DNA from: an uncultured Elusimicrobia bacterium
Lineage (GTDB): Bacteria > Elusimicrobiota > Elusimicrobia > UBA1565 > UBA9628
DNA length: 59,940 bases
NCBI GenBank assembly: GCA_964450975.1
Contig: CAYVFO010000001.1
Location: forward strand, 1 to 59,940
Reading direction: 5' to 3'
Under the pieces are notes generated by a model, which made no database searches, had not been told where the DNA came from, and saw nothing but the letters and a program-made list of their open reading frames with translations. Position numbers and translations under genes: made by a program. Below are positions 2,166-48,700 of this stretch, piece after piece; within the stretch, counting starts at the first letter, position 1; every line of letters begins with the position of its first letter.

Positions 2166-3305
2166 ATGCCCAAGCTCGACGAGGTCAAGGCTAAGCTCGG
2201 CGCCCTGAAAGGGGTGGCGGAGCTTTTCCTCGGTCCCAAGGACGTCGTCGGGATCGATGTCGGCTCCTACTCCGTGAAGGTCGTCCTCTTCAAAGTGGAG
2301 GCCGGCCAGGCGCATCTCAAGTCCTGGGGCTATCTGCCGCTCACCGGCAAGGTGGACGCGGGACCCGACGAGAAGAAGGTCGCGGTCATCAACGCGCTGC
2401 GCGCCTGGTTCATCGAGAAGGGCGTCAAGATCAAGGAAGCGGCGACCTCCCTCTCGGGCAACGCGGTCATCGTGCGCTACGTGAAGTTCCCGCGCCTGAC
2501 CAAGGGCGAGCTGTCTCAGACGCTCGCGACCGAGGCCGAGCCCTTCATCCCTTTCGACATCAACGAGGTCCAGCTCGGCTTCCACATCCTGGCCGAGATC
2601 GTCGAGGACGGCCAGAAGACGATGGAGACCGTCCTGGTCGCCGCGAAGAAGGAGCTCATCGGGCAGCGCCTCGAGATCCTCGAGGGCGCCGGCCTCTCCC
2701 CCACGATCATCGACGTCGACAGCTTCGCGCTCGAGAACGTCCACGAGAAGCTGTCCGGCAAGGAAGGCGGCGGCGCCGCCCTCTACCTTAATATCGGCCA
2801 CATGGTCACCAATCTCTCGATCATCGAGAACGGAGTGACGCGCGTCGTCCGCGACGTGTTCATCTCCGGCAACACGATGACGAAGGCGATCATCAAGGCG
2901 TTCCAGTGCGACGCCGCCAAGGCCGAGGAGCTCAAGAAGACGCGCGGCGTCTTCGTCGACCCGGCCGAGAAGGAAAAGGCGCTCGCCGACGGCGACCGCG
3001 ACGGCCTCGGCGTGTCGCAGGCCGTCGGCCAGGTCGCGCGCGACCTCGTCGCCGAGGTCCACCGCTCCGTCGACTTCTACCTCTCGCAGGGCCCGGACCG
3101 CTCGATCGGCCGCATCCTGCTCTCGGGCGGCAGCGCCCGCGTCAAGAATCTCGACAAGCATCTCGCGCAGGAGCTCAAGGTTCCCGTGACGGTGCTCAAT
3201 CCGTTCGCGTTCGCCAAAGGCGGCGACCAGGTTCCCGAGGAGCTCGCCTCGTCCTTCGGAGTCGCCGTGGGTCTGGCCCTGCGCCAGAACCGGGACTGGG
3301 AATAG
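2166..3305 (+). CDS. pilM: type IV pilus assembly protein PilM (actin-like ATPase fold)
   Basis: 379 aa. The N-terminus (VVGIDVGSYSVKVV) and overall layout are typical of PilM. It is followed by pilN/O/P/Q. Confidence 0.9.
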   Translation: MPKLDEVKAKLGALKGVAELFLGPKDVVGIDVGSYSVKVVLFKVEAGQAHLKSWGYLPLTGKVDAGPDEKKVAVINALRAWFIEKGVKIKEAATSLSGNAVIVRYVKFPRLTKGELSQTLATEAEPFIPFDINEVQLGFHILAEIVEDGQKTMETVLVAAKKELIGQRLEILEGAGLSPTIIDVDSFALENVHEKLSGKEGGGAALYLNIGHMVTNLSIIENGVTRVVRDVFISGNTMTKAIIKAFQCDAAKAEELKKTRGVFVDPAEKEKALADGDRDGLGVSQAVGQVARDLVAEVHRSVDFYLSQGPDRSIGRILLSGGSARVKNLDKHLAQELKVPVTVLNPFAFAKGGDQVPEELASSFGVAVGLALRQNRDWE

Positions 3306-3308
3306 ACC

Positions 3309-3860
3309 GTGGCCATCAAGGTCAACCTCGTCCCCCCGGAGCTGCTCGGAAAAGCGAAGCAGCGCCAGCTCATGCTGCAGGCCGGCGTCATCGGCGGCAT
3401 CCTGCTCATCGTGCTCGCCGGCGTCTCCTTCGGCCACTGGTTCGGCAAGCACCGCCTCGAGCAGCAGCTGGCGTACGACGAGGCCGAGCTGCAGCGCCTC
3501 GACGCGATCGTCAAGCAGGTCGAGGAGCTCGAGAAGGCCGCGGCCGCCGTGCGCGCGCGCCTCGGCGTCATCGAGGATCTCCTGCTCGGCCGGACGTACT
3601 ACCCCGTCTTCATGTCGGACTTCGCGCGCACCGTCCCGGGCGGCATCAAGGTCAACTCGATGCAGACCGCCGGCGCGGGCGCCGGCACCGGCTCGATCAA
3701 GCTCACGATCGCCGCCGTCGCGAACTCGAACGAGGACATCGCCGCCTGGATCAAAACGATGGAGAAGAACCCCCGGTTCGTCAACATCGAGCTCGGCGCG
3801 GTCTCGAACTCGAACAATCTGTACGATTTCGGCATGACCGCGAACTACACCAACAAATAA
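3309..3860 (+). CDS. pilN: type IV pilus assembly protein PilN
   Basis: 183 aa. INLVPPE-like N-terminus (KVNLVPPELL), one TM helix, then a coiled coil. GTG start 3 nt after the pilM stop. Confidence 0.85.
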   Translation: MAIKVNLVPPELLGKAKQRQLMLQAGVIGGILLIVLAGVSFGHWFGKHRLEQQLAYDEAELQRLDAIVKQVEELEKAAAAVRARLGVIEDLLLGRTYYPVFMSDFARTVPGGIKVNSMQTAGAGAGTGSIKLTIAAVANSNEDIAAWIKTMEKNPRFVNIELGAVSNSNNLYDFGMTANYTNK

Positions 3861-3861
3861 C

Positions 3862-4407
3862 ATGGCCCTCCAACTCTCGAAGCAGGAGCAGCAGTACGTC
3901 GCGGGCGCCGCGTTCCTCGTGGTCGCGCTCGGCTTCGTCTACGTGAAGTTCTTCTGGCTGCCCGTCTCGCAGGCCAAGAAGGAGGCCCGCGAGAAGATCG
4001 AGGTCATCGAGGCCAAGATCGTCAAGGCGAAGCAGCAGGCCGCTCGCCTCAAGCGCCTGCAGGATGAGATCGCGACGCTCAACGAGCGCGCGGTCGAGGC
4101 CGAGAAGCGCCTGCCGAAGTCGAAGTCCGTGCCCGACATCCTGCTCGCGATCTCGGCGCTCGCCCAGAAGCAGCGCGTCACGATCCAGAGCTTCGCGCCC
4201 GGCCCGCAGAAGAGCCAGCAGTACTTCATCGAGCTGGCGTACCCGGTTTCCGTCAAAGGCTCGTATCACAGCATCGGCCGCTTCCTCGCGGCGCTGTCGC
4301 TCGAGGAGCGCATCTTCAACGTGCGCGACATCAACTATCCGACGGCGGACGCAGCCGGAGACATGACGGTGACCTTCGTCCTGCTCTCGTACCAGTATAA
4401 AGGATGA
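3862..4407 (+). CDS. pilO: type IV pilus assembly protein PilO
   Basis: 181 aa. TM helix, coiled coil and a ferredoxin-like C-terminus (YHSIGRFLAALSLEERIFNV). Position in the operon fits. Confidence 0.85.
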   Translation: MALQLSKQEQQYVAGAAFLVVALGFVYVKFFWLPVSQAKKEAREKIEVIEAKIVKAKQQAARLKRLQDEIATLNERAVEAEKRLPKSKSVPDILLAISALAQKQRVTIQSFAPGPQKSQQYFIELAYPVSVKGSYHSIGRFLAALSLEERIFNVRDINYPTADAAGDMTVTFVLLSYQYKG

Positions 4408-4901
4408 TCACTCTCGCTATCGCTTTACTCGTCGCGACGGCCGGCCCCGCGGCCGCGGGGCCGGCGCCGTCGCCGGCCGCCGGCGTCGCCGCGTCCACGT
4501 CCTCGGTCATCGCGACCTCGACGCAGACGGTGGCGACGATCTACACCGGCGACCGCGTGCGCGATCCGTTCCTGCCGGCCGCCATGGGCGCGACGAGCGC
4601 CCGTCGCGCCGACAAGGACGAGAACTCCGGGCCCGAGACCGTGGACATCCACGGCATGGCGCTCAAGGGAATCCTCAAGGACAAGATCGCCGATTTCGCG
4701 CTCTTCTCCTCGGAGCAGGGCGGCACGTACATGCTCAAGGCGGGCAAGCTTTTCAACGACCGCAACAAGCCGGTGCCCGGAGTGACCGGCCGCATCAAGA
4801 TCAAACAGAAGACCGTGGAGCTCATCACGGCGGACAAGGACGTGCAGGTGTTCCGCCTCGGTGAGGAAGAAGAGAAGGACAAGACAAAGGAGAAGCCTTG
4901 A
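4404..4901 (+). CDS. PilP-like periplasmic pilus assembly protein (no lipobox Cys)
   Basis: 165 aa with a signal peptide, sitting between pilO and pilQ. The C-terminal beta-rich region resembles PilP. ATGA overlap with pilO. Confidence 0.55.
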   Translation: MITLAIALLVATAGPAAAGPAPSPAAGVAASTSSVIATSTQTVATIYTGDRVRDPFLPAAMGATSARRADKDENSGPETVDIHGMALKGILKDKIADFALFSSEQGGTYMLKAGKLFNDRNKPVPGVTGRIKIKQKTVELITADKDVQVFRLGEEEEKDKTKEKP

Positions 4902-7009
4902 CGGCGGAGAATCCCATGATGAAACACGATCTTCCCAAAAAGGCGCTCGCGGCCCTGCTCGCCGCGGTGCTCTCCATTCCCGGCGGCGCCCTCGAGGCGT
5001 TCGCGGCCGAAGCCGCGGCCGCTCCCGCCTCGCCCGCGACCTTCAACGGCGTCGACGTCGCGGACGACTTCGTCACGATCGAGCTCTCCACCGGCGTCCT
5101 CTACAACAGCTTCCTCACGCAGACGCCGCCCAGGCTCGTCATGGAGCTGCTCGACGTCAAGCACGAGGGCCCCACGCAGACGATGAAGGGCAAGGGCCAG
5201 TTCCTCGCGGGCGTCCGCACGAGCCAGTTCGAGAAGTCGCCGCGCCTCATCACGCGCGTCGTCATGGATCTCGTGAAGATGGCCGGCTACAAGGTGGGCA
5301 CGACGCCGAGCGGCCTGACCGTGCAGCTCGTCGGGTCCGTCGAGGATGACGGCAAGCAGGCCGCGGCTCCCGCTCCCGCCGCCGCGCCCGCCGCCAAGCC
5401 CGTCGTCGCCAAGCGCGCGGCCGCCGCCGCGCCCAAGCCCCTCGTCGCCGAGGCGGCCGCCGCGACTCTCCCCGTTCCCGCAGCGGCGCCCGTCGAGGCT
5501 CCGGCTCCGGTCGCCAAGCCCAAGATCAAGGTGACGACCGACGCCGGCCAGGCGATGCGCCGCGCCGGCCTCACCGGAACGATGTCGCCGGAGCTCGCGG
5601 CCGCCGCCGTGAACTCGGACATCACGAAGACCAAGGTCAACGTCGGCGACGACGGCCTCGACGACGAGCGCAACGACCGCCGCGGCGCCAACCGCGCGTA
5701 CCGCGACATCATGAGCCGCCTGCCGCGCGATCCCGTCACGCTCGACTTCGACAACACCGACATCCGCGACGTCATCCGCCTGCTCGGCGCGAAGGCGAAG
5801 CTCAACATCGTCTTCGGCCCCGACGTCGGCGGCAGCCTGACGCTCCATCTCGTGGACGTTCCCTTCAACGAAGCCTTCCGCACGGCTCTGTCCATGATGA
5901 AGCTCACGACCGACCAGGTCGGCGACAACATCCTGCGCGTCATCACGCCGGGCGAGCTGACCCGCATGCGCACGACGTCGAGCGCGATCTCGCGCGTCTT
6001 CACGCTCAACTACGCCAAGGCCTCCGAGGTCAAGACGACGATCGACGCGGTCCGCACCGCCGAGGGCCGCACCGGCTCCTCGACGGCCGACGCGAAGTCG
6101 AACCAGCTCATCATCACCGACACGCTCGAGGGCCTGCTCTCGGCCGAGAACCTGATCGGACAGCTCGACCAGCGCCCGCGCCAGGTGCTCATCGAGGCCA
6201 AGCTCATCGAAGTCAACGCCAACACCGGCCTCAACTACGGCGTTCAGTGGGACTACCTGCAGAACGACCGCGGCCGCATCGGCGGCAAGCAGGGCATCTC
6301 CACGATCGGCGCGACGAACGGCTACACGTCCACGACGATCAATCCCCTCACGACGGCCGACAACACCGTGGTCAACAACGTCGGCTCGACCGGCGGCGTC
6401 GGCGCGACGGCGCGCGGCACCGGCGTCAGCCTCGCCGCGGACCGCGTGTTCGGCGCGATGACGCTCGGCCGCGTCACGAACAACTTCATCCTCAACGCCA
6501 CGCTCACCGCGGCGGCGTCCGAGGGCAAGGCGAAGATCCTCTCCGAGCCGAAGATCGCGACGCTGAACAACCAGCCCGCGAACATCAACGTCACCACTCA
6601 GATCCCCTACGTGACGTCGAACGTCGCCTCGACCGGCGTGCAGACGCAGACCGTCTCGTACGTGACGACCGGCATCCAGCTGACCGTCACGCCGAGCATC
6701 AACGCCGACGGCCGCATCACGCTGCAGGTCAAGCCGGACGTCAGCCAGCCTTCCGTCGTGGCGTCGGGCTCCACGCAGACGGGCGCTCCCGCGATCGACG
6801 CGAGAACGGCGAACACCACCGTGCTCGTGCGCGACGGCGAGACGATCGTCATCGGCGGCCTGATCACCGATTCCTTCCAGGACACGATCTCCAAGATCCC
6901 GCTCCTGGGAGACATTCCGATCCTCGGCTGGCTCTTCAAGAAGAAGACCAAGACCCGCACGCGCGCGGAGCTCCTGATCTTCGTCACGACGAGGATCCTC
7001 CCCGACTAG
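4898..7009 (+). CDS. pilQ: type IV pilus secretin PilQ with N-terminal AMIN domain and Ala/Pro-rich linker
   Basis: 703 aa. The secretin C-terminus reads GETIVIGGLI...IPLLGDIPILGWLFK. The more likely start is the ATG at 4916 (MMKHDLPKK, GGAG 8 nt upstream) rather than the TTG at 4898. Confidence 0.9.
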   Translation: MTAENPMMKHDLPKKALAALLAAVLSIPGGALEAFAAEAAAAPASPATFNGVDVADDFVTIELSTGVLYNSFLTQTPPRLVMELLDVKHEGPTQTMKGKGQFLAGVRTSQFEKSPRLITRVVMDLVKMAGYKVGTTPSGLTVQLVGSVEDDGKQAAAPAPAAAPAAKPVVAKRAAAAAPKPLVAEAAAATLPVPAAAPVEAPAPVAKPKIKVTTDAGQAMRRAGLTGTMSPELAAAAVNSDITKTKVNVGDDGLDDERNDRRGANRAYRDIMSRLPRDPVTLDFDNTDIRDVIRLLGAKAKLNIVFGPDVGGSLTLHLVDVPFNEAFRTALSMMKLTTDQVGDNILRVITPGELTRMRTTSSAISRVFTLNYAKASEVKTTIDAVRTAEGRTGSSTADAKSNQLIITDTLEGLLSAENLIGQLDQRPRQVLIEAKLIEVNANTGLNYGVQWDYLQNDRGRIGGKQGISTIGATNGYTSTTINPLTTADNTVVNNVGSTGGVGATARGTGVSLAADRVFGAMTLGRVTNNFILNATLTAAASEGKAKILSEPKIATLNNQPANINVTTQIPYVTSNVASTGVQTQTVSYVTTGIQLTVTPSINADGRITLQVKPDVSQPSVVASGSTQTGAPAIDARTANTTVLVRDGETIVIGGLITDSFQDTISKIPLLGDIPILGWLFKKKTKTRTRAELLIFVTTRILPD

Positions 7010-8426: not shown

Positions 8427-10342
8427 CGCGCCGCCTCGACCCCGCGTACGCCTGCGCGGCCGCGCTCGGCGTCATGGTTCTCGCTCTGCTCGGACCGGCG
8501 TGGGCGAAAGGCCTGACGCCGTTCTGGTCCGACCTCACCTACCTGCACCAGGCTTGGCGCTCGGCGCCGGCGATGAGCGTGGCGGCGGGGCGCGTCCCGC
8601 TGTGGGAGCCGTCGCTCTACCTCGGCATGCCGTCGCTCGCCGCGCTCCAGGGCGCGCTGCTCTATCCGCCGACGATCCTCTACTATCTGTTCGGCTTCGC
8701 GACCGCGACCGCGCTCTATCACGCGCTGCACCTGGTCGTCGCCGGCTGGCTGTGCGCCCTGTGGCTGCGGTCTTGGCGCATGACGTGGGGCGCCGCGCTC
8801 GGCGGGGGAATCCTCTTCGCGTTCGGCGGCCTGCTCGTCGCGCGCCTGCCCTACCTCAACCATCTCTCGGTGTTCGCGTGGGCGCCCGCTCTGCTGCTGT
8901 TCTTCCGGCGTCCGGCGGCGCTCGGCCTCGTCCTCGCCTTGATGACGCTCGCGGGCTACCCGACGGCCGTTCCCGGCTGCGCGCTCGCGGCGTGGGCGGT
9001 CGCGTTCGCGGCGCGCACGCGCCGGACCGAATGGCGCTCCTCGGCGCTCGCGTGGGGCCTCGCCGGCGCGCTCGCCGCCGCGCTCTCGGCGGCGCAGCTC
9101 CTGCCCGGGCTCGAGCTCGCGTCGCTGTCGCGCCGCGCGGCCGGCCTCTCGCTCGAGGAGGCTCTCACCTGGAGCTTCTCGCCGGGCGACCTCCTGCAGT
9201 GGATCGGCCCGCTCGCCGTCGGGTGGGGCGCGTTCAAGCCCGCCGAGCAATGGTGGCTCTGCGTCTATCTCGGCGTCGCCGGGACGATTCTCTGCTGCGC
9301 CGGAGCTCTCGCGGTCCCGCGCCGCCGCGCGGCGGCGCTCGCCGTCTTCCTCGCGGCGGCCGTCGCGCTCACGCTCGGCGGCACGAACCCGCTCTCGTCG
9401 TGGCTCTGGGCGCACCTCGCCCCGCTCAAGTACGTGCGCTATCCGGGCAACCTCGCGTACCTGTGCCTCCCCGCGCTCGCCGCGCTCGCGGCCGCGGGGC
9501 TCGCGCGGCGAAAGTCGGGGCCCGTGCTCGTCCTGCTGCTCGCCGCCGAGCTCGCCGCGCTCGGCCGCTTCGCGACGCCGCTCGCGCCCCGGGCGCTGTT
9601 CACCGACGCCGGGCCGCTCGTGCGCGCGCTGCAGGAGCGGCAGGCGGGCTCGCGCTATCTGATCTCGCCGCGCGCCCTCCATTCCTCGTCGGGCGCCGAC
9701 GTCTTCGACTGGCGCCGCCGGCTCTACGGCCTGACGAACGCGCCGTACCGCCTGCGCGCGGCCGTCAACTTCGGCGAGCCGCTCGTTCCGCGCGATTCGT
9801 ACGCCGCGGTCGATTTCCTGCAGAGCCTGCCGGGCGCCGACGCCGCCGCGAGCTGGATGCCGTGGATCGGCGCTTCGCGCCTGCTCACGCCTTCGCCCGC
9901 CGACACCGCGCGCTTGGCCGTCGAGGGCGTCGCTCTCTGGCACGTCGCGCGCGTCCGCGGTCCCGTCTCGCTCGCGTACTTCCTGCCTCCGCGCGAAGGC
10001 GCGGCGCTTCCCGCCGCGCTCGCGGGCGAGCCTCCCGAGACCGGCTCGCCGCTCGAGCTCCGGCGCGAGCGCGAGGACCGCTTCGAGATCTCCGGCGAAG
10101 GCGCGGGCTGGGCGTTCGCCGCCGAGCCGCGCTTCCCGGGCTGGACCGCGTCGCTCGAGACGCCCGCGGGCGTCCGTCCCGTTTCGCCGCTTCCGGCGCT
10201 CGGCCCGTTCCAGAAAGTCGAGACTCCGGCCGGGCCTTGGACCGTGCGCTGGCGCTACGAGCCGCGCCCGTGGGCGCTCGGACTTCTCGCCTCGTGGGCG
10301 TCGTTGGCGGCCCTCGCGGCCTATTGGTATCATCGCCGATGA
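8423..10342 (+). CDS. YfhO-like GT-C membrane glycosyltransferase, paralog 1
   Basis: The real frame is the 3' part of track ORF 7130-10342. GTG start overlaps the upstream stop (GTGA). N-terminal motif GRVPLWEPSLYLGMP...LYPP. Many TM helices and a terminal TM anchor. Confidence 0.65.
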   Translation: MTRRLDPAYACAAALGVMVLALLGPAWAKGLTPFWSDLTYLHQAWRSAPAMSVAAGRVPLWEPSLYLGMPSLAALQGALLYPPTILYYLFGFATATALYHALHLVVAGWLCALWLRSWRMTWGAALGGGILFAFGGLLVARLPYLNHLSVFAWAPALLLFFRRPAALGLVLALMTLAGYPTAVPGCALAAWAVAFAARTRRTEWRSSALAWGLAGALAAALSAAQLLPGLELASLSRRAAGLSLEEALTWSFSPGDLLQWIGPLAVGWGAFKPAEQWWLCVYLGVAGTILCCAGALAVPRRRAAALAVFLAAAVALTLGGTNPLSSWLWAHLAPLKYVRYPGNLAYLCLPALAALAAAGLARRKSGPVLVLLLAAELAALGRFATPLAPRALFTDAGPLVRALQERQAGSRYLISPRALHSSSGADVFDWRRRLYGLTNAPYRLRAAVNFGEPLVPRDSYAAVDFLQSLPGADAAASWMPWIGASRLLTPSPADTARLAVEGVALWHVARVRGPVSLAYFLPPREGAALPAALAGEPPETGSPLELRREREDRFEISGEGAGWAFAAEPRFPGWTASLETPAGVRPVSPLPALGPFQKVETPAGPWTVRWRYEPRPWALGLLASWASLAALAAYWYHRR

Positions 10343-12177
10343 CCAAACGGGACGCCCTCGCCGCCGCCGGCCTGGCCGCCGTCCTGCTGGCTCTTCTCGC
10401 GCCGGCGTGGGCCCGCACCTCTCCCGCGTTCTTCAATCACGGCGACCTCTGGACGTACCATTGGCCGCTGCGGCATCACAGCGCGACGGAGTTGATCTCG
10501 GGCCGCCTCCCGCTCTGGAACCCGTACGTCCTCCTCGGCGTTCCGCACGCCGCCAACCCGCAGACCGCGCTCCTCTATCCGCTCTCGATCCTGGGCTTCG
10601 TCCTGCCCGCGCTGACGGCGCTCGCGTGGGATCAGATCCTGCACCTGCTCTGGGCGGGCCTCGGCGCGTTCCTGCTCGCGCGCCACCAGCGCCTCTCGCG
10701 CGGCCCCGCCGTCGCCCTCGCGGCCGCCTACGCGCTGTGCCCGTTTCTGATCTTCCGGATCACGGCCGGAATCCCGACCTTGCTCGCCTCGCTCGCGTGG
10801 GTGCCGTGGGCGTGGCTCGCGTGGCTCGGCGGCTCGGCGTTCCTGCTCTCCGCCGTCTTCGCTCTGCAGTTCCTCTCGGGACACCCGCAGTTCCTCGTCG
10901 TCAACGCGGCGGGGATGGCGCTCTGGGCCGCGATCCGCGCGCCGCGCGCGCTGCCGCGTCTCGCGGCCGGGGCCGCGGGCGCGGCCGTCCTCGCGGCGGC
11001 GCAGTGGCTGCCGCTGCTCGAGCTGCTGCTCGGCTCCAACCGCGCGGGCTGGCCCGCCGAGTTCGCCGCGTCGTATTCGCTCGAGCCGCGCGCCGTCCTC
11101 GCGTGGCTCGTCCCGTCGGCGCTCGGCACGCCCTTCGACGGCCGCTGGACGGGCCCGATCTCCGTCTTCTACGAGAGCTGCGGCGTCCAGCTCGGGCTCG
11201 CCGCGTACGCGGTCGCCGCCGCGGGGCTGCTGCGCGGCGGGCGCGCCGCCGCCGCGGCCGCGGGCGTCGCCGTCGCCGGCTTCCTGCTCGCGCTCGGCGG
11301 CAACGGTCCGCTCGCGTTCCTGCTGACGATGCCGGGCGCTTCGTTTTTGCGGACGCCGTCGCGCTGGTCCTTGCTCTGCCTCTGGGGACTGTGGCTCCTC
11401 TTCGCCGCGGGTCTGCGCTCGCTCGAGCGGCGCGGCCCGTCGCGCCGGTGGGCGGCGCTCGCCCCGCTGCTCGCCCTGCCGCTGCTCCTGCGGGCGCCCG
11501 CCTATCTGCGCGGAGAGGATCCGGCGCCCTACGCGGCGTCCAAGCCCGAGATCGCGGCCCTCGGCGGCGGAGCCTCGCGCGTGCTCGTCGATCCCGAGCT
11601 CGCGAACCAGAACAAGTCGATCGTCTACCGCCTGCGCAACGCCAACGGCTACGACGCCTTCTACCCGGCGGGCTCGGCGCTCTGGGCCGCGGCCGCGCAG
11701 GGGGAGCCCGCCGCCGACTCGAGCCGCGTGCTCGTCTCGAACTGGAAATCCGACGCCTCCGCCCGCGCGGGCGTGGCGATTCGTCTCGGGCCCTCCGGGC
11801 TCGAGCGCTCGAGCGACGCCTGGCCGCTCGCCGCGTTCGTCGACGCCGCGGGCCGCCGGCTCAAGCCCGATCCCGCGCTCGTCCTCGAGCGACCCGGGCG
11901 CTGGCTCGTCGCGGGGCCCGCGCCGAAGGGCGCCGCCGCGGTGGCGCTCGCCGAGCAGGCCTGGCCCGGCTGGCGGGCCTTCCTCGGCGGCTCCGAGGCG
12001 GAGCTCGGCGGCTGGGGCCCCGCCTTCTCGCTCGTCGAGCTTCCGCCCGGACTCGCGAGCGTCGACCTGCGCTTCGAGTTCGACCCGCCGCTCGCGCGCC
12101 TGCTGCCGCTCGCGGCGGCTCTCGCGTGGGGCGCGTGGCTCGCGGCCGCCGCCCGCGCGGCGAGGAGCGCGGCATGA
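10339..12177 (+). CDS. YfhO-like GT-C membrane glycosyltransferase, paralog 2
   Basis: This is the 3' part of track ORF 8500-12177, with an ATGA overlap. N-terminal motif GRLPLWNPYVLLGVP...LYPL is clearly paralogous to the preceding gene. Confidence 0.65.
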   Translation: MTKRDALAAAGLAAVLLALLAPAWARTSPAFFNHGDLWTYHWPLRHHSATELISGRLPLWNPYVLLGVPHAANPQTALLYPLSILGFVLPALTALAWDQILHLLWAGLGAFLLARHQRLSRGPAVALAAAYALCPFLIFRITAGIPTLLASLAWVPWAWLAWLGGSAFLLSAVFALQFLSGHPQFLVVNAAGMALWAAIRAPRALPRLAAGAAGAAVLAAAQWLPLLELLLGSNRAGWPAEFAASYSLEPRAVLAWLVPSALGTPFDGRWTGPISVFYESCGVQLGLAAYAVAAAGLLRGGRAAAAAAGVAVAGFLLALGGNGPLAFLLTMPGASFLRTPSRWSLLCLWGLWLLFAAGLRSLERRGPSRRWAALAPLLALPLLLRAPAYLRGEDPAPYAASKPEIAALGGGASRVLVDPELANQNKSIVYRLRNANGYDAFYPAGSALWAAAAQGEPAADSSRVLVSNWKSDASARAGVAIRLGPSGLERSSDAWPLAAFVDAAGRRLKPDPALVLERPGRWLVAGPAPKGAAAVALAEQAWPGWRAFLGGSEAELGGWGPAFSLVELPPGLASVDLRFEFDPPLARLLPLAAALAWGAWLAAAARAARSAA

Positions 12178-13154
12178 AGCGCAAGCTCTCGATCGCCGCC
12201 GCGATCGGCGTCACCGTCCTCTTCCTGTGGCTCGCGCTGCGCGGCGTCGCGTTCCATGAGCTCGGCGCCGCGCTCGCCGGCGCGCGCTGGGCCTGGCTCG
12301 TCCCGATGGTCGTCATCATGAGCGTCGATCTGCTCGTGCGCGGCTACCGCTGGCGCGTGCTGCTGTCGCGCGCGCGTCCCGAGCCCGCGCCGACGTGGAC
12401 GATGGTCAAGCTCTCGGCGATCGGGCTCGCGGTCAACAACGTGCTGTTCCTGCGGCTGGGCGAGCTCGCGCGCGCCGCTCTCGCGGGGCGCCTGCTGAAG
12501 ATCCCGGTGCTCGCCTCGCTCGCGAGCGTCGCGATCGAGCGCGCGCTCGACGTCTCGGCCCTCCTGACGATCTTCATCCTCGCCGCGAAAGCCGTTCCCG
12601 GGGTCGCCGACGACCGCGTCGTGCTCGCCGCCGGGGTCATCCTCGCGGCGGCGATCTCCGCGCTCGTCGTGCTCGCGGTCGCCGAGGCGTGGGTCGCGCC
12701 GGGCGGCTGGATCGAGCGCGCCCTGCGCCCCTGGCCCAAGCTGCACGGCCTCGTCGAGCAGCTCTCGCTCGGCGCCGCGGTCCTGCGCTCTCCGTCGGCC
12801 GCCGCGCAGGCCGCCGCGCTGTCGGTGTTCCTCTGGTCGATCGACGCCGCGCTCTACTGGGCGTCCGCGCGCCTGATGGGCCTCGAGACGATCATGGACT
12901 ACCCGCGCGCGGTCCTCACGCTCTCATGGGCGGGCGCGTCGTCGGCGCTGCCCGCCGCGCCCGGCGCGATCGGCACGTTCGAGGCCGTCGTCGCGTCGAT
13001 CCTGGGCAAGCTCGGCGCGGAGCCGGCGGCCGCGTTCGCCTACGCGCTCGTCACTCACATGGTCATGTACCTCTACGTCACCTGCCTGGGCCTGCTGTTC
13101 CTCTCGCGCGAGGGCATCTCGCTCGCGCAGCTGCAGGAGGAGGCGAAGAAATGA
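12174..13154 (+). CDS. flippase-like / lysylphosphatidylglycerol-synthase-TM-domain family membrane protein
   Basis: 326 aa (3' part of track ORF 10407-13154), with an ATGA overlap. Contains a VDLLVRGYRWRVLL motif and about 8 TM helices. Confidence 0.6.
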   Translation: MKRKLSIAAAIGVTVLFLWLALRGVAFHELGAALAGARWAWLVPMVVIMSVDLLVRGYRWRVLLSRARPEPAPTWTMVKLSAIGLAVNNVLFLRLGELARAALAGRLLKIPVLASLASVAIERALDVSALLTIFILAAKAVPGVADDRVVLAAGVILAAAISALVVLAVAEAWVAPGGWIERALRPWPKLHGLVEQLSLGAAVLRSPSAAAQAAALSVFLWSIDAALYWASARLMGLETIMDYPRAVLTLSWAGASSALPAAPGAIGTFEAVVASILGKLGAEPAAAFAYALVTHMVMYLYVTCLGLLFLSREGISLAQLQEEAKK

Positions 13155-14173
13155 AGCTCTCGCTCCTCGGGGTCCTGGCGTGCCCCGTCTGCGGCGGAGA
13201 CCTCAAGTTCTCCGTGCTCGAGGAGTACCCGCGCCACGACCAGGAGGTCGAGGACGCGACGCTCGCGTGCAAGGGCTGCGGCCGGGAGTATCCCGTGCGC
13301 GAGGGCATCCCGCGCCTGCGCCCGCCCGCTCCCGTCGCGGCCGCGACCGACAAGACGCGCCGCGCGTTCGGCTGGGAGTGGCTCCGGTACCCGGGCTCGC
13401 TGCCCGAGGACAAGGAGATCTGGCTCGAGGAGACGATGCTGCCGGTCGAGGAGGTCGCGGGCAAGCTCGTGCTCGACGCGGGCTGCGGCATGGGCCGCTA
13501 CAGCGCCGTCGCGCTCTCGCTCGGCGCGGAGGTCGTCGCGCTCGACATGTCCGAGAGCCTCATCCGCGTCGCCGCGCTCGCGCGCACGCAGCCGAAGCTC
13601 CATCCCGTCGAGGGAGACCTGCTCGCGCCGCCGTTCAAGAAGGGCGTGTTCGACACGGCGTACAGCCAGGGCGTCCTCCACCACACCGCGGACACGCGCG
13701 CCGCGTTCAAGGCCGTCGCCGCTCTCGTGAAGCCGCGCGGGCACCTCTCGGTCTGGCTCTACGGCAAAGCGGGCCGCTACGCCGATTTCGCGACGAACCC
13801 CCTCAAGCCCGGCCGCGAATGGATCGCGAAGCGCCGCCGGCTCGCGTGGTGGATCGTGCTTCTGCGGCACGTCGTCAGCGACTTCGTGCGCGTCTTCACC
13901 ACGCGCCTGCCGGTGCCCGTCGTGCACCTGATCTGCCATCCGCTCACGTGGCTCGGCGTCGTGCCCGGCCTCAAGTGGTTCACCTACTCGGTGCATCCCG
14001 ACTATCAGGTCCGCCTCATCGAGAACTTCGACTGGATCTCGCCGCCGTATCAGTGGCACCACACGAAGGAGGAGCTCGCCCGCTGGTACAACGAGGAGGG
14101 ATTCACGGTCCTGCGCTTCCTGCCGCACGGACTCGTGCCCAAGCCGGGGGCGATCGGCCGGAAGGCCAAGTGA
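13151..14173 (+). CDS. class I SAM-dependent methyltransferase with N-terminal Trm112-like zinc ribbon
   Basis: 340 aa. CPVCGG...CKGCGREYPVREGIPRL followed by VLDAGCGMGRY (SAM motif I). ATGA overlap. Confidence 0.75.
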   Translation: MKLSLLGVLACPVCGGDLKFSVLEEYPRHDQEVEDATLACKGCGREYPVREGIPRLRPPAPVAAATDKTRRAFGWEWLRYPGSLPEDKEIWLEETMLPVEEVAGKLVLDAGCGMGRYSAVALSLGAEVVALDMSESLIRVAALARTQPKLHPVEGDLLAPPFKKGVFDTAYSQGVLHHTADTRAAFKAVAALVKPRGHLSVWLYGKAGRYADFATNPLKPGREWIAKRRRLAWWIVLLRHVVSDFVRVFTTRLPVPVVHLICHPLTWLGVVPGLKWFTYSVHPDYQVRLIENFDWISPPYQWHHTKEELARWYNEEGFTVLRFLPHGLVPKPGAIGRKAK

Positions 14174-15300
14174 CCGGCGGCCCGCGCGTCGTCATGGTCA
14201 GCGCGGGCTTCTGGCCGGCCCTCGGCGGCGCCGAGGGGCAGGCGCTCGAGCTTTCTCGCGCTCTGCTCGCGCGCGGCGCGAAAGTGCTGGTGCTGACGCG
14301 CCGCGTCGACGGCCTGCCCTCTCGCGGCGAGGCGAAAGGCGTGCCCGTCCGGCGCCTGCGCGTGCTCGGGACCGGAGCGCTCGACTCGCTCTCGTTTTTG
14401 TTCGGCGCGTTCGGCTGGCTGCTCAAGCACGGCGCGGAGTACGACGCGATCCACGTCCATCTCGCCGGCTCGCCCGCGCTCGCCGCCGCGGCCGCCGGCC
14501 GCTGGCTCGGCAAGCCCGTCGTCGTGAAGCTCGGCGGCGGGCGCGGCATCGGCGAGCTCGCCGTCTCCTCGAAGACGGCGCTCGGCCGCCTCAAGCTCGC
14601 CCTGCTCGCGCGGCTCGGGCCCAAGTTCCTCGCGGTCGTCCCCGATCTGGCCGACGAGGCGCGCGAGCATCTCGGCGGCGCGGACATCGAGATCCTGCCC
14701 AACGGCGTCGACGCGGCGCGCTTTACGCCCGTCCCGGCCGCGCGGAAGGCCGCGCTGCGGCGGGAGCTCGGCTGGCCCGCGGGAGCCGTCTTCCTCTACA
14801 CCGGCCGCTTCTCCTGGGAGAAGCGACTGCCGTGGTTCGCCAAGGCGTGGCTCACGGGCTCCGCGGGCAAGGACGCGGCGCTCCTGCTCGCGGGCGACGG
14901 GCCCGAGCGCCCCGCGCTCGAGGCCGAGGCCGCCGCGTCCGGCGGGCGCGTGCGCGTGCTGCCGCGCGTCGACGACGCCGCTCCGCTCTACGCCGCCGCC
15001 GACGCGTTCGTCCTCCCGTCCGTCTCGGAGGGCCTGTCGAACTCGCTGCTCGAGGCGATGTCCTCCGGCCTCGCCGTCGTCGCGAGCGCCGTCGGCGGGA
15101 CCGCGCAGACGGTGGACGGCGGCCGCACGGGCCTCTTGTTCCCGGAGGGGGACGCCGCGGCCGCCTCCGCCGCCGTCGCGAAGATTCTGGCCGACCCCGC
15201 CGCCGCGGCGGCGCTCGGACGGGCCGCGCGCGCGGAGATCGAATCCAAATATTCTCTCGACCGCGTCGCCTCGCGCTGCCTGGAGCTCTACCGCCCATGA
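14170..15300 (+). CDS. glycosyltransferase family 4 (GT-B)
   Basis: About 376 aa. The C-terminal EGLSNSLLEAMSSGLAVVAS (E-x7-E region) is typical of GT4. GTG at 14170 overlaps the upstream stop; an alternative ATG lies at 14194. Confidence 0.8.
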   Translation: MTGGPRVVMVSAGFWPALGGAEGQALELSRALLARGAKVLVLTRRVDGLPSRGEAKGVPVRRLRVLGTGALDSLSFLFGAFGWLLKHGAEYDAIHVHLAGSPALAAAAAGRWLGKPVVVKLGGGRGIGELAVSSKTALGRLKLALLARLGPKFLAVVPDLADEAREHLGGADIEILPNGVDAARFTPVPAARKAALRRELGWPAGAVFLYTGRFSWEKRLPWFAKAWLTGSAGKDAALLLAGDGPERPALEAEAAASGGRVRVLPRVDDAAPLYAAADAFVLPSVSEGLSNSLLEAMSSGLAVVASAVGGTAQTVDGGRTGLLFPEGDAAAASAAVAKILADPAAAAALGRAARAEIESKYSLDRVASRCLELYRP

Positions 15301-16778: not shown

Positions 16779-18706
<1,928 letters not shown>

Positions 18707-18710
<4 letters not shown>

Positions 18711-19204
18711 AGCGGCCGCGGCTGATCGCGATCGCCGTCCTCGCGCTCGGAATGTTCCTCCTGCGCGACAAGGTGCGCGGCGTGTTCTTCTTCCTCGACG
18801 GTATCGACCTGATCATCCACGAGGCGGGCCATCCGATTCTCGGGATCTTCGGCTGGCGCTGGCTCATGATGGCGGGCGGGACGATCTTTCAGCTCGCCTG
18901 GCCGCTGGCGTTCGTCCGCCACTTCTGGAAGAACGGTCAGCCCAAGTCGGCCTACGCTTGCGTGCTGTGGTTCGGCCAGAACTTCCTGCACATCGGCCGC
19001 TACGCGGCCGACGCCCGCGCCCAGGAGCTGCCGCTGGTCGGCGGCGGGGAGCACGACTGGACCTATCTGCTCGACTGCTGGGGCCTGCTCGCGCGCGACA
19101 TCGGCGTCGGGATGACCTTCGATTTCCTCGGTTGCGCGATCATCGCGTGGTCGCTCGTCGCGCTCTGGGCCGAAGCGCGGCGTCCCGATCCGTCCTTGGT
19201 CTGA
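18707..19204 (+). CDS. small polytopic membrane protein with HExxH (HEAGH) motif
   Basis: About 165 aa. TTG start at 18707 overlaps the asnB stop; an alternative ATG lies at 18752. HEAGH is encoded at 18818-18832. About 4 TM helices and high GC3. Confidence 0.45.
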
Positions 19205-19450
19205 ACGGCAAACCACCAAGACACAAAGACACGAAGAACGGCGGCGGAAAGAACGGAACGGATCAACACGAAGACGGCGAAGGACGGCGAAGACGGATAA
19301 GAACGAAACGGAAAAAGGTGATACGGCGTACGGAGGCCATGGCCTCCGTACGCCGTTACCCTCAATCCGTTCTTCGCCGTCCTTCGCCGTTCTTGGCGCG
19401 TCGGCACGAAATCATCTTCGTGTTTTTCCGTTGTTCGCCGTCGGGCGAAA
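19205..19450. repeat. structured inverted-repeat intergenic element, copy 1 (MITE/REP-like; candidate bidirectional terminator)
   Basis: It fills the whole spacer between convergent stop codons at 19204 and 19451. It holds a perfect 34-nt palindrome (19323-19356) and a second stem of about 29 bp (19270-19298 pairing with 19365-19395). A 51-nt block and a 43-nt block are identical to copy 2. Confidence 0.8.
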
Positions 19451-20062
19451 CTAGCCGAGCTTGAGGGCCGAGAGGATGAGCTGCACGCCGATCGCGGCGA
19501 GCAGCAGGCCCATGAGGCGGGTGATGATGTTGAGGATCGTGGGCGAGAGCTTCTTGGCCCCGTCGGCGGCGATCGTCAGCACGTAGTAGGAGATCAGCGC
19601 CACGACCGCGATGCACAGGTAGAAGATCAGGCTCTGCTCGATGCCCTGCGCGCGTCCGGCGAGCACGATCGAGGTCGTGATCGCGCCCGGGCCGGCGAGC
19701 AGGGGCACCGCGAGCGGCGTGATCGCGATGTCGTCCTTGTGCATGCCCTCCTCGACCTCCTCGGGCGTCTCGCGCATGGCCGACTTCTTGGCGCGGATCA
19801 TGTCGAGCGAGGAGAGGAGAAGGACGAGGCCGCCCGCGATCTGGAACGCGGGCAAGGTGATGCCGAACACCCTGAAGATCAGGGGGCCGAGGAGCGCGAA
19901 GATCGCCATGACGCCGGCGCAGGTGATGCACGCGGTGCGCGCCATGCGGCGGCGCTGCTCCTTCGTGTCGCGCGCGGTCATCGCGAGGAACGTCGGCACC
20001 GCGGCGAACGGGTCGACGATCGCGAAGAGCGAGCCGAAGGTCAGGAGCGCGTAATTGAGCAT
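19451..20062 (-). CDS. MarC-family (UPF0056) integral membrane protein
   Basis: 203 aa. The N-terminal FAIVDPFAAVPTFLAM motif is typical of MarC/NAAT. Confidence 0.85.
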   Translation of the reverse strand: MLNYALLTFGSLFAIVDPFAAVPTFLAMTARDTKEQRRRMARTACITCAGVMAIFALLGPLIFRVFGITLPAFQIAGGLVLLLSSLDMIRAKKSAMRETPEEVEEGMHKDDIAITPLAVPLLAGPGAITTSIVLAGRAQGIEQSLIFYLCIAVVALISYYVLTIAADGAKKLSPTILNIITRLMGLLLAAIGVQLILSALKLG

Positions 20063-45512: not shown

Positions 45513-45519
45513 TCTTCTC

Positions 45520-45547
45520 CTTATATGAGCGTTGGAATTCTACCCAA
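45520..45547 (-). promoter_or_regulatory. promoter/RBS region of the 12-gene array (two alternative -10 boxes)
   Basis: The minus strand reads TTGGGTAGAATTCCAACGCTCATATAAGGAGAAGAATG. Either TAGAAT (45537-45542) gives a ~20-nt leader carrying an AAGGAG SD, or TTGGGT-N16-TATAAG-N7-ATG gives a leaderless transcript. Confidence 0.4.
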
Positions 45548-45557
45548 AAATGGCACG

Positions 45558-45796
45558 AAACGACAACGGAAAACCACAAAGACACGAAGACACGAAGAAC
45601 GGCGACGGAAAGAATGGATAACGGAAAAACACGAAGACGGCGAAGGACGGCGAAGACGGATAAGAACGAAACGGAAAAAGATGATACGGCAACGGAGGCC
45701 GTGGCCGTTAAACCCTCAATCCGTTCTTCGCCGTCCTTCGCCGTTCTTGGCGCGTAGGACGTCGGACCATCTTCGTGTTTTGCCGTTGTCGCCGTT
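45558..45796. repeat. structured inverted-repeat intergenic element, copy 2
   Basis: Same orientation as copy 1. 45630-45680 is identical to 19267-19317 (51 nt) and 45713-45755 is identical to 19359-19401 (43 nt). The apical hairpin differs. It abuts the dnaE TAA stop (45795-45797). Confidence 0.8.
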
Positions 45797-48700
45797 ACGC
45801 GGCTTTCTTTTCCCAGCGGCGGGGGGCGATGACCGCGGGGGCGCCGGTGGACTCGATCGTCCAGCAGCGGCCGAGGATCGCCTCGACGCCCTCGAAGAGC
45901 GCCTGATTGAGGACGACGCGCATCTCGGTGTCGAGGACGGCCATGCCCTCGGAGGTCTCCTGCTCGAGGACGACGGGACAGGTGCCGGGGTTCTTCTCGA
46001 AGACGTCGCGCAGCTGCTCGAGCTTCTCCGTTCCGACGGACGGGTCGCACCGGAGGCGCAGGCGCTTGGCAAACTTCGTGACGGACTGGTCGAGCGGGGC
46101 CATCTCGTCGACGATGAGCTCGGCGGTGGCGCCGACGCCGGCCTCCTCGCCCTTGAACGAGAGCCGGCCCGTGACCGCGACGAACGCGCCGACCTTGCCG
46201 AGATTGTTGACGCCCGCGGCGTAGGTCTTCGGGAAGCAGAGCGCCGTGATCTCGCCGGTCAGGTCTTCCAGCGTGCAGATGACCCACGGCTCGCCCGTCT
46301 TCTTCGAGACCATCTTGCGCGTGCGGCTGATCATGCCCGCGAGCCGCACCGGCGTCGTGATCGCGGGCGTGAGCTGCGAGACCTCGTGCGTCGCGGCGGC
46401 CTTGAGCTGGGGCTTCACCGAGAGGAGCGGGTGGCCGGAGAAGTAGAAGCCGAGGACCTCGCGCTCGAAGGCGAGCGTGTCGTGCTCGGACAAGGGCTTC
46501 ACCGCCGGATCGGCCGGCGCGGGCGCGGCGTCGGCGGGCGCGCCCATGAACAGCAGGCCCTGGCCCTTGTCGAGGTCGGCCTTCACCTTCTGCTGGGAGC
46601 CGACGGCGCGGTCGACGGCGGCCAAGAGGCGCGCGCGGGCCGCGTTCGCGGGCTCGCCGGGGCGCAGGCAGTCCATCGCTCCGGCCTTGATGAGCGACTC
46701 GACGCACTTCTTGTTGATCGCGTGCAGGTCGACGCGCGCGCAGAAGTCGTCGATCGACTTGAACGGCTTCTCGCGCGCGGCCGCGACGATCGAGTCGGCG
46801 GCGCCGGAGCCGACGTTCTTGATCGCGAGCAGGCCGAAGCGGACCTCGCCGTTCTGGATGTCGAAGCGCGTCTCGCTCTTGTTGACGTCGGGCGGGAGCA
46901 CCTTGATGCCCATGCGCCGCGTCTCGTCGAGGTACGTGACGAGCTTGTTCTCCTTGTCCTCCGCTCCGATCGACGAGTGGCCGATCTCCGACGTGAGGAC
47001 GGCGGTCATGAACTCGATCGGGTGGTTCGCCTTGAGGTACGCGGTCTGGTAGGCGACGATGCCGTAGGCGACGGTGTGCGACTTGTTGAAGCCGTAGCCG
47101 CCGAACTTCGCCATCTGGTCGTAGATCTTGTTCGCGAGCTTGGGGGCGACCTTGTTGACGGTCGCGCCTTTGACGAACTTCTCGCGCAGCTTCTCGATCT
47201 CCTCGGGGATCTTCTTGCCCATGGCCTTGCGCAGTCCGTCGGCTTCGCCGGGCGTGAAGCCCGCGAGCTTCTTGGAGATCTCCATGACCTGCTCCTGATA
47301 CACCATGCAGCCGTAGGTGTCCTTCAGGATGGGCTCGAGGATCGGATGGTCGTACTTCACTTCCTGGCGGCCGTGCTTGCAGTCGACGAACATGTCGAGC
47401 ATGCCGGACTGCATCGGGCCGGGGCGGAAGAGCGCGATCGCGGACGCGATGTCCTCGAAGGTCGTCGGGCGGATGCGGAAGATGAGGTCGCGCATGCCCT
47501 GCGAGTCGAGCTGGAAGATCGCGAGCGCCTTCGCGGTGCGCAGCAGCTCGTAGGTCTTCTCGTCCCCGTTGGGGATCTTGTCGATGTCGAAGTCCTTGAG
47601 CGGGCCGCGCTTGATGAACTTGACCGCGTCGTCGATGATCGAGAGCGTGCGCAGGCCGAGGAAGTCGACCTTGAGCAGGCCGAGCTTCGGGCACCAGTCG
47701 CCGTCGTACTGCGTCGTGACGACGTCGGACTTCGCGCCCTTGGCGAGCGGCGTGTAGCGGACGACGGGCTCCTTGGTGATGAGCGTGCCGGCCGCGTGGA
47801 CGCCCGTGTGGCGCTTGAGGCCCTCGAGCTTGAGCGAGAGCTCGAGCAGCTGCTTGACCTGCGGGTCCTTCGCGAGCTCCTGCATCTCGGGGCCCTGCAT
47901 CGCCTCGTGCAGGTGGACGTTCGGGCCGGTCGGGATCTTCTTGGCGATCTCGTCGACCTGCATCAGCGGCATGTCCATGACGCGGCCGACGTCGCGCACG
48001 ACGAGCTTCGCGCCGAGGGAGCCGAACGTGATGATCTGCGCCACGCACTCCTTGCCGTACTTCTCGCGCACGTACTGGATGACTTTGTCGCGGCCCGTGT
48101 CGGCGAAGTCGATGTCCAAGTCGGGCATCGACTTGCGGTCGGGGTTGAGGAAGCGCTCGAAGAGCAGGCGGTGCTCGAGCGGGTCGGCGTTGGTGATGCG
48201 CAGCGCGTACGCGACGATCGCGCCGGCGCCGGAGCCGCGGCCGGGGCCGACGGGCACGCCGATCGATCTGGCGTGCTTGATGAAGTCCCAGACGATCAGG
48301 AAGTAGCCCGAGAAGCCCATGCGCCGGATGACGCCGAGCTCGAAGTCGAGGCGCTCCTTGTGCTCGGGCCGGAGGGTCCCGAAGCGCTCCTTGAGGCCCT
48401 CGATGCACAGGTGCTCGAGGTAGGAGTCCTGATTGTAGCCCTCGGGGACCTTGAACTCGGGCAGGAGCATCTGGTCCATCGGGATCTTCACGTTGCACAT
48501 CTCGGCGATCTTGAGCGTGCTCGCGATCGACTCGGGCGCGAACGAGAACAGCTTCGTCATCTGCTCCGGCGACTTGATGTAGAACTCGTGCGTCTCGAAC
48601 TTCAGCCGGTCGGTCTCCGCGAGCTTGCGGCCGGTCGCGATGCAGACGCGCGCGTCGTGGGCCTCGAAGTCGTCGGGCTTGAAGTAGTGGCAGTCGTTCG

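Follow-up and report, generated by a model that had tools for sequence, protein, structure and literature searches.

A probable insertion-type hairpin repeat in an Elusimicrobiota contig shares its octamer ends with elements in phages

In a contig of an uncultured Elusimicrobia bacterium (CAYVFO010000001.1, assembly GCA_964450975.1; the whole stretch analyzed, which is the entire contig of 59,940 nucleotides, is referred to as the window), the spacer at 19205-19450 is filled by a structured inverted-repeat element, which is the subject of this report. The spacer is bounded by a TGA stop codon at 19202-19204 on the plus strand and by CTA at 19451-19453, the minus-strand stop codon of marC. It lies in a polysaccharide-synthesis cluster, where a small membrane open reading frame (ORF) and marC converge on it. 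The plus-strand ORF that ends at 19204 is ~165 amino acids long, starts at ~18704 after an asnB-like gene (16779-18710), and has no Pfam match. It is not a 598-amino-acid ORF: judged by GC content at third codon positions (GC3), the long ORF at 17408-19204 is a composite artifact of the asnB-like gene and, in another frame, the membrane ORF at ~18704-19204. A preliminary description, drawn from the sequence alone, had taken the space between the two stops for an AT-enriched, noncoding element with a copy elsewhere in the window. Both stops were verified, and the GC content of the element is 0.565, compared with 0.692 for the window. Its noncoding status is likewise supported: GC3 is flat, at 0.52 to 0.64 in all frames through the element vs >0.9 in the flanking genes, and its translated open frame, searched against a protein database for miscalled copies, had no homologue.

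Anatomy of the two copies

The element at this spacer, copy 1, consists of a purine-rich left half (74% purines) and a pyrimidine-rich right half (35% purines, 65% pyrimidines), as had been described, with 10 occurrences of ACGG on the left side and 7 of CCGT on the right. Read on the plus strand, the left flank ACGGCAAA (19205-19212) directly follows the TGA of the ~165-amino-acid ORF and is succeeded by a terminus at 19213-19237, CCAC-CAAGACAC-AAAGACAC-GAAGA, which is canonical for the octamer-ended family described below (profile match, E = 9.7e-5; also matched by regular expression). The purine-rich left arm (19238-19322), with ACGG every ~5-15 nt, leads to an apex hairpin (19323-19356, strandless) and then to a pyrimidine-rich right arm (19357-19437) that includes a side hairpin at 19403-19424. 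The right terminus, CTTCGTGT-TTTTCCGT-TG-TTCG, ends at 19437 and is decayed; the right flank CCGTCGGGCGAAA (19438-19450) extends to the marC stop codon. This flank is kept in an element-less relative, L067 (CCGTCGGG..AACTA), and the right junction is backed by L067 together with L063, a relative with a shorter element, which have CCGTCGGG/TTCGCCG in common beyond the junction.

The apex is a perfect 34-nt palindrome with CCATGG at its center, the sole one in the window and matched in 0 of 100 shuffles. A perfect stem joins 19274-19293 in the left arm to 19371-19390 in the right arm; at 20 bp, it is somewhat longer than first proposed (19276-19292 with 19372-19388). Imperfect inverted repeats had also been claimed for the terminal arms, and this holds for the subterminal arms at 19257-19274 and 19415-19432, which are 89% complementary, but not for the outermost left 25 nt (19213-19237), which are unpaired in the best folds. 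Both short direct repeats noted earlier were located twice, CACGAAGA with starts at 19230 and 19267 and GGCGAAG(G)ACGG with starts at 19276 and 19286. The RNA-folding check that had been proposed revealed structure far beyond that of dinucleotide shuffles, none of which equaled it, with -124.6 kcal/mol (z = -8.7) on the plus strand and -129.2 kcal/mol (z = -8.1) on the minus strand; the same was true of the DNA fold (z = -10.0).

A second copy in the same orientation does lie 26 kb away, at 45565-45797. The two copies are 86% identical and have exact blocks of 53 nt and 44 nt in common, where 51 and 43 nt had been reported. Copy 2 has the dnaE stop on one side and, on the other, a response-regulator gene of the same strand; its spacer is not convergent. 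Its canonical terminus (45574-45597, plus strand) reads CCAC-AAAGACAC-GAAGACAC-GAAG (profile E = 1.2e-4), its stem arms are at 45637-45656 and 45725-45744, and its central hairpin (45686-45709) is imperfect. On one side it adjoins the predicted sigma-70-type promoter of the response regulator (45537-45566, minus strand; -35 TTGTCG, 18-nt spacer, -10 TAGAAT), 8 nt upstream of the predicted -35; its other junction is 1-3 nt from the dnaE stop codon (TAA, 45795-45797, minus strand). A stop codon lies no more than 10 nt from the start of either copy.

Relatives in close strains and in phages

The window phosphofructokinase clusters at ≥90% identity with UPT74114.1, annotated as "MAG: Elusimicrobiota bacterium" (MAG, metagenome-assembled genome; CP096137.1). 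That genome is syntenic with the window at ~79% identity, and the close MarC homologues are all from Elusimicrobia. To compare strains at the copy 2 locus, we used contigs that encode an identical response-regulator protein, and these form two classes. Copy 2 is present in L020 and L022, which match the window at 100% identity and end inside the copy. In L019 (~95% flank identity) and L021 (~93%), which are sisters with 97% identity to each other, BLAST joins window position 45575 to 45792 with a 2-nt overlap, and the flanks are otherwise collinear. The missing plus-strand segment (45574-45791) comprises 216 bp plus one of two flanking CC, with boundaries ambiguous by 2 nt. Exactly these 216-218 bp are what L019 and L021 lack, so the element is gained or lost as a whole. 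In outgroups at 79% identity, no trace of the element is seen, and thus a single gain on the window branch is the most parsimonious explanation of the polymorphism. The empty site, too, has the predicted promoter.

The left flank of copy 2, ACGGAAAA, stays in the empty site, where L019 and L021 retain ACGAAAAACC. The left flank of copy 1 resembles it and, because the similar flank is present in an empty site, is target-like rather than inserted DNA. The empty site reads ...CAACGAAAAACCGCTACG..., and the flanks of copy 1 are strikingly similar (AACGGCAAACC, then CCGT), suggesting a preferred insertion target. In the outgroups, the gap between dnaE and the response regulator holds two opposite-strand genes of ~85 and 176 amino acids that lack Pfam matches (L053:7970-8803 and L054:7844-8793, 79% identity); these genes are missing from the window (45513-45794) and from L019, which makes the spacer a hotspot of change. 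Three contigs that are 100% identical to the window (L018, L020, and L022; Logan SRR6261451, SRR6943129, and SRR6943131) stop inside the copies, at the 44-nt or 53-nt blocks. The element thus breaks short-read assemblies, and its true copy number is hidden in MAGs.

At the copy 1 locus, L063 (MarC with 97% amino acid and 93% nucleotide identity) has a shorter element of ~110 nt, the inverted ends of which are perfect over 21 nt (AACCACCAAGACACAAAGGCA/TGCCTTTGTGTCTTGGTGGTT); its center resembles that of copy 2, and it has no CGAAGGACGG stem at all. The left ends of both window copies (CCAC-CAAGACAC-AAAGACAC-GAAG at 19213-19236 and its equivalent at 45574-45597) are the L063 terminus; in the window copies, this left end is canonical, in contrast to the decayed right end. 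When searched with a profile of the octamer-repeat end, the window and L063 have exactly two sites each. Since L063 shares the terminus without the stem, the right ends in the window are decayed, and the left end is unpaired in the best folds, the conspicuous stems appear to be an elaboration of this lineage, and what is informative and conserved is the octamer-repeat left end. Compared with the imperfect centers of copy 2 and L063, the perfect palindrome of copy 1 is likely a derived state. At this locus, the hairpins of relatives at 85% and 79% identity are ordinary, unrelated ones of ~40 nt.

Ends of the same type occur in viral sequences. Scans of a viral collection with two degenerate end patterns retrieved 41 and 34 loci, vs 2 for a reversed control pattern of equal composition and periodicity. 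From the viral loci, we extracted 36 unique paired elements (64-359 nt), and a further ~40 true solo half-sites and ~12 ends with decayed partners were found. Family members have the form T-K-M-A, then CCAC-(VAAGRCAC)2-6-VAAG, a variable interior, and the inverse of the end, and they fall into recognizable subfamilies. The canonical terminus of the window copies is present in L063 and in 96 distinct ends on phage contigs. These contigs are genuine phages, as genes for the tail tube, the tape measure, and the portal show, and their GC contents span 45-72%. Exact protein look-ups showed that three of them are prophages: the host is Caenispirillum salinarum AK4 (Alphaproteobacteria) for one contig, and the other two belong to Endozoicomonas-like Gammaproteobacteria. 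No protein cluster is common to more than 4 of the 63 motif loci; the motif therefore moves independently of its surroundings and recurs in otherwise unrelated DNA.

The covariation check suggested in the preliminary description came out negative. Between the arms of family members, pairing of R positions does not exceed chance (0.33-0.39 observed vs 0.39-0.52 expected), pairing of N positions (of NAAGRCAC) exceeds it only modestly, and the 7-mer AAGRCAC is invariant. Relative to co-directional genes, half-sites face one way 13 times and the other way 11 times, which is no strand bias, and paired elements are found in all gene-orientation contexts. The lack of arm covariation, the invariant 7-mer, and the absence of strand bias together point to recognition at the DNA level.

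Family ends often lie 0-20 nt after stop codons, and solo ends often make up a whole gene-gene junction, with the stop codon TAA running directly into CCAC(CAAGGCAC)n...ATG. Late regions are dense in ends; some phage regions have one per ~1 kb, and one stretch of 8.7 kb has 8. At L119:3033-3475, inverted octamer ends bracket exactly one 130-amino-acid ORF (a weak match to phrog_38816, of unknown function). With its left end directly against the ATG and its right end overlapping the TGA, this unit looks like a gene cassette. At L109:2033-2165, a 44-nt unit made of an octamer end plus flank (ACTTTGTGTCTTTGTGTCTTCGTGGTTGCCTTAAACATAATTAA) is repeated 3-4 times in tandem beside a complete element. 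Other short tandem repeats were seen beside octamer sites at L070 ~3810-3860 (CTGTGGACT/CTGTAGACT), L094 ~1990-2050 (CTGAGAA/CTGAAAA), and L080 ~5140-5175 (GATTTCA), and phage intergenic regions with octamer sites may collect several kinds of short repeats.

Broader searches for the window element itself returned little. Rfam gave no matches in the window at gathering thresholds, and an E-value search gave only microRNA-hairpin noise (12-36 bits vs thresholds of 60-137). The stem 20-mer ACGGCGAAGGACGGCGAAGA had 17 matches in 185,579 species-representative genomes and 29 in JGI metagenome contigs, all of them single chance matches of at most ~40 nt. As this 20-mer is lineage specific, what the two large scans exclude elsewhere is the long form with ACGG arms rather than the family. 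The window-specific interior had only chance matches in viral contigs, and BLAST of copy 1 and canonical members against annotated plasmid and phage collections gave no match. Filled and empty pairs were also sought among the phage loci, where only identical duplicates turned up, and a literature search by motif strings found unrelated primers only.

Origin of the element and rival explanations

On balance, we favor, with modest confidence, the interpretation that the element is a non-autonomous insertion-type repeat, a ~220-bp lineage-specific derivative of a widespread octamer-ended inverted-repeat family, comparable to miniature inverted-repeat transposable elements (MITEs) and to mobile hairpins of the repetitive extragenic palindrome (REP) type. 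This interpretation builds on the presence of at least two dispersed copies in the Elusimicrobiota contig, on one 216-218-bp presence/absence difference between flanks that are 93-95% identical, on the relative at the copy 1 locus with two canonical ends (93% flank identity), and on the 36 hairpin elements bounded by the same ends in unrelated phage and prophage regions. The family has no match in Rfam or, by sequence, in the literature and is apparently undescribed.

The unit would spread horizontally, with phages as its likely vehicles, and would insert into A-rich sites shortly after stop codons (AACGGNAAA^CCGT at both window copies) without target duplication. A putative trans-acting protein would mobilize it by reading the repeated 7-mer AAGRCAC, not the stem. 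In the Elusimicrobiota lineage, the interior may have grown into complementary arms rich in ACGG/CCGT, the apex of copy 1 may have been converted to a perfect palindrome, and the right terminus of the window copies seems to have decayed, so that these copies may no longer be mobile. We tentatively raise a broader possibility, of which we are rather doubtful: octamer-ended hairpins might be an unrecognized class of small mobile DNA that crosses phyla, resides mainly in tailed phages, inserts by stop codons without duplication, is moved by a putative 7-mer-reading protein, and is neither a classical MITE nor a REP, with the Elusimicrobiota copies stemming from a phage-to-chromosome jump followed by growth of a 100-bp stem. 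Without the link to the phage family, the element would be an ordinary MITE/REP-like one.

The preliminary description had proposed a MITE-, REP-, or Correia-like repeat. A dispersed noncoding repeat with presence/absence polymorphism and relatives elsewhere was indeed found; for each named family, however, some of the defining features checked were lacking. Bacterial MITEs, such as Correia/CREE of Neisseria, ERIC/IRU, and Nezha, are generally <200 bp, with some of ~400 bp, and their terminal inverted repeats straddle a core (PMC3184786). The octamer-ended family resembles them in being short, noncoding, intergenic, and multicopy, with conserved inverted ends around a variable core, a long stable stem-loop, a small size (64-359 nt; ~220 nt in the window), and no transposase gene inside. 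Filled and empty orthologous sites between close strains add to the resemblance, with copy 2 as a single event. Terminal inverted repeats are present in the 36 family pairs and in L063, and half present in the window copies, which have one intact end. Unlike MITEs, the family has no target-site duplication (TSD) and no partner insertion sequence with matching ends was found in the window and ~0.6 Mb of fetched loci. Where MITEs have a unique terminal inverted repeat (TIR), the family has ends of tandem octamers that vary in number, and solo ends abound. Correia elements (100-155 bp, 26-bp TIR, duplicated TA target, IHF site, Neisseria) differ in ends, size, and host, and the family shows neither a TA target nor its duplication.

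REP/BIME/REPIN sequences are mobilized by RAYT (IS200/IS605-like Y1) transposases; a REP unit is short, palindromic by self-complementarity, and headed at 5' by a conserved GTAG-type tetranucleotide, and two inverted units make a REPIN. With these sequences, the family shares an extragenic location, palindromic character, lack of a TSD, doublets that form long hairpins, and a conserved terminal tetranucleotide (CCAC/GTGG here, GTAG in REPs), together with insertion by a specific short sequence without duplication. It differs in that its arms are CA-rich octamer arrays that are not self-complementary, rather than self-folding units, and in having CCAC instead of GTAG as its tetranucleotide, at the outer 5' end. 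The 60-kb contig has no RAYT or Y1 gene. Moreover, REP families are genome specific, whereas the octamer family is mostly in phages and crosses phyla. The STRR sequences of cyanobacteria, short tandemly repeated heptamers, are intergenic arrays of 7-8-nt units with variable copy number and unknown function; they are long, direct, and confined to one phylum, whereas the octamer family has 2-6 units that form the inverted ends of a discrete element. CsrA-type sponges, Rho rut sites, P4-type iterons, and mycobacteriophage stoperators were considered and dropped, as the resemblance was superficial.

Several observations weigh against an insertion-type repeat. The TSD check was negative: compared with permuted flanks, the 36 pairs have no excess of 2-6-nt direct repeats at any boundary offset, and the copy 2 junction has only an ambiguous 2-nt CC. 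No transposase, RAYT/Y1, recombinase, or tRNA gene was found in the window, and no transposase, recombinase, or autonomous parent was found between widely spaced ends in ~0.6 Mb of loci, which instead hold tail-tube, tape-measure, portal, and unknown genes. The octamer-end profile found no copy in ~150 kb of Elusimicrobiota sequence at 79% identity. Both large DNA scans used the stem 20-mer rather than the conserved end, and the count of two copies covers the window only. A single gain or loss event was resolved, for which hairpin-stimulated deletion in the ancestor of L019 and L021 is a possible alternative. The solo half-sites, the density of ends, and the tight stop-motif-start junctions resemble a functional signal or a recombination linker more than transposon scars.

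Such a linker is, in our analysis, the main rival, although we consider it unlikely. The octamer ends would be conserved intergenic modules like the PeSLs (promoter-early stem-loops) of T4-type phages, spreading and shuffling genes by homologous recombination, and the window copies would be such modules, obtained from a phage and multiplied through recombination or gene conversion. PeSLs combine a strong sigma-70 promoter with a terminator stem-loop, and recombination between copies creates indels (PMC2839356, PMC4122927); modular shuffling and the formation of mini-circles through them have been documented (PMC2839356). The octamer elements resemble them as repeated motifs of ~50-100 bp between phage genes that have a stem-loop, bracket small accessory ORFs, and would move genes by recombination without a transposase. 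The lack of both TSD and transposase fits a linker, as do the common solo half-sites exactly at stop/start junctions, the L119 ends that bracket a single ORF exactly, the tandem amplification of one end in L109, and the high density in phage late regions. However, the empty site of copy 2 has no pre-existing octamer half-site with which to recombine and no resident copy, and no sigma-70 promoter is predicted within copy 1. PeSLs are confined to T4-like hyperplastic regions, whereas the octamer motif is found in a bacterial chromosome as well as in late regions of the siphovirus-like type, and its sharing across phages of 45-72% GC that have no other detectable homology is poorly explained by recombination alone.

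A role at gene ends was the other proposal in the preliminary description, which saw a dedicated bidirectional terminator family; for a family that fills convergent spacers, we found no support. Copies of a terminator or RNA-stabilizing hairpin, bidirectional in copy 1, would be kept by selection for their function, a possibility to which we give little credence. It is true that the hairpin is very stable on both strands, follows closely after stops in the window and often within 0-20 nt in the family, is A-rich upstream and T-rich downstream, and occupies a convergent spacer in copy 1; copy 2 also separates dnaE from the response regulator's own promoter. The ordinary ~40-nt hairpins of the element-less relatives are terminator-like and occupy the same convergent spacer, which would mean that this position needs one; they also count against a terminator dedicated to the purpose. 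Compared with intrinsic terminators (5-20-bp GC-rich stem, 3-8-nt loop, U-tract), the stem is ~10 times too long, with many regular mismatches and no clean basal U-tract. No canonical GC stem with U-tract is present at the 3' edges, and the weak internal matches (one in copy 1, with 8 pairs of which 3 are GC, and two in the copy 2 region) are at chance frequency. The idea is further weakened by the noncovarying arms, by the unpaired conserved left end, and by close strains that manage without copy 2. Copy 2 lies between co-directional genes upstream of a promoter, and family members are found in divergent and co-directional contexts as well and, in phages, upstream of start codons. Terminator function also leaves unexplained the 86% identity over 220 bp between unlinked loci. 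It is plausible that the ~100-bp imperfect hairpin acts, as a by-product, as a putative passive barrier or 3' stabilizer for transcripts of dnaE, marC, and the 165-amino-acid ORF; a terminator role would probably be secondary and not the reason for the existence of the element.

Two further explanations seem even less probable. A structured small RNA or cis-regulatory RNA, for example a protein sponge with ACGG/GGA-type motifs or a CA-rich translational leader, expressed from its own or an upstream promoter, would be consistent with the strong fold z-scores, with the repeated ACGGA/AAGGA motifs of the left arm, and with solo octamer sites that contain AAGG directly upstream of start codons. 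We nevertheless think it very improbable: Rfam yields generic hairpin noise, copy 1 has no predicted promoter inside it or next to it, neither strand folds better than the other, as with a DNA palindrome, there is neither covariation nor orientation bias, and close strains lack the element. A purely local duplication of the spacer, with no family and no mobility, is the least credible alternative. There are only two copies in 60 kb, and neither the stem 20-mer nor the interior was found beyond chance in the species-representative genomes, JGI metagenome contigs, and viral contigs. The family evidence largely refutes it, since canonical ends tie the element to L063 and to dozens of loci elsewhere at ~20-fold over the control, and the copies have precise boundaries and lie 26 kb apart in unrelated contexts.

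Significance and minor observations

Small palindromic repeats have a part in setting operon boundaries, interrupt assemblies, and promote rearrangements, and they have been catalogued in a few well-studied phyla only. The signature of CCAC plus tandem VAAGRCAC octamers in inverted pairs links the chromosome of an uncultured member of the Elusimicrobiota to many otherwise unrelated phages, among them prophages of cultured Caenispirillum and Endozoicomonas-like bacteria. It makes the family easy to annotate, and the family may serve as a marker of gene flow between phages and hosts. A tractable question follows, for which cultured hosts exist: which protein recognizes the octamers, and how the unit spreads without target duplication or a visible transposase. 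The element also accounts for odd low-GC spacers in its source genome and for contig breaks in other assemblies.

Other palindromes were noted along the way. A different element in a Thermoanaerobaculia MAG (L011:650-850; CTGTCATTCTGAGC...GCTCTGAATGACAG) contains the CGAAGGACGGCGAAGA stem of the window element, which may reflect convergence or a shared module. Between the octamer element of L063 and the stop of the small ORF lies an unrelated 62-nt hairpin (L063:777-838; arms TTATTCACA...TGTGAATAA) that is absent from the window; its arms match the DnaA-box consensus, TTATNCACA. This hairpin is another small insertion-type palindrome in the lineage.

Elsewhere in the window, the region at 8500-14200 has the highest GC content (~75%), a strongly negative AT skew, and ambiguous gene calls, and it includes a 1,225-amino-acid ORF with no Pfam match and a low GC3 (0.77). 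The stretch at 2166-7009 holds a type IV pilus assembly cluster in the order pilM, pilN, pilO, an unknown gene, and a pilQ-like secretin gene, an ordinary context.

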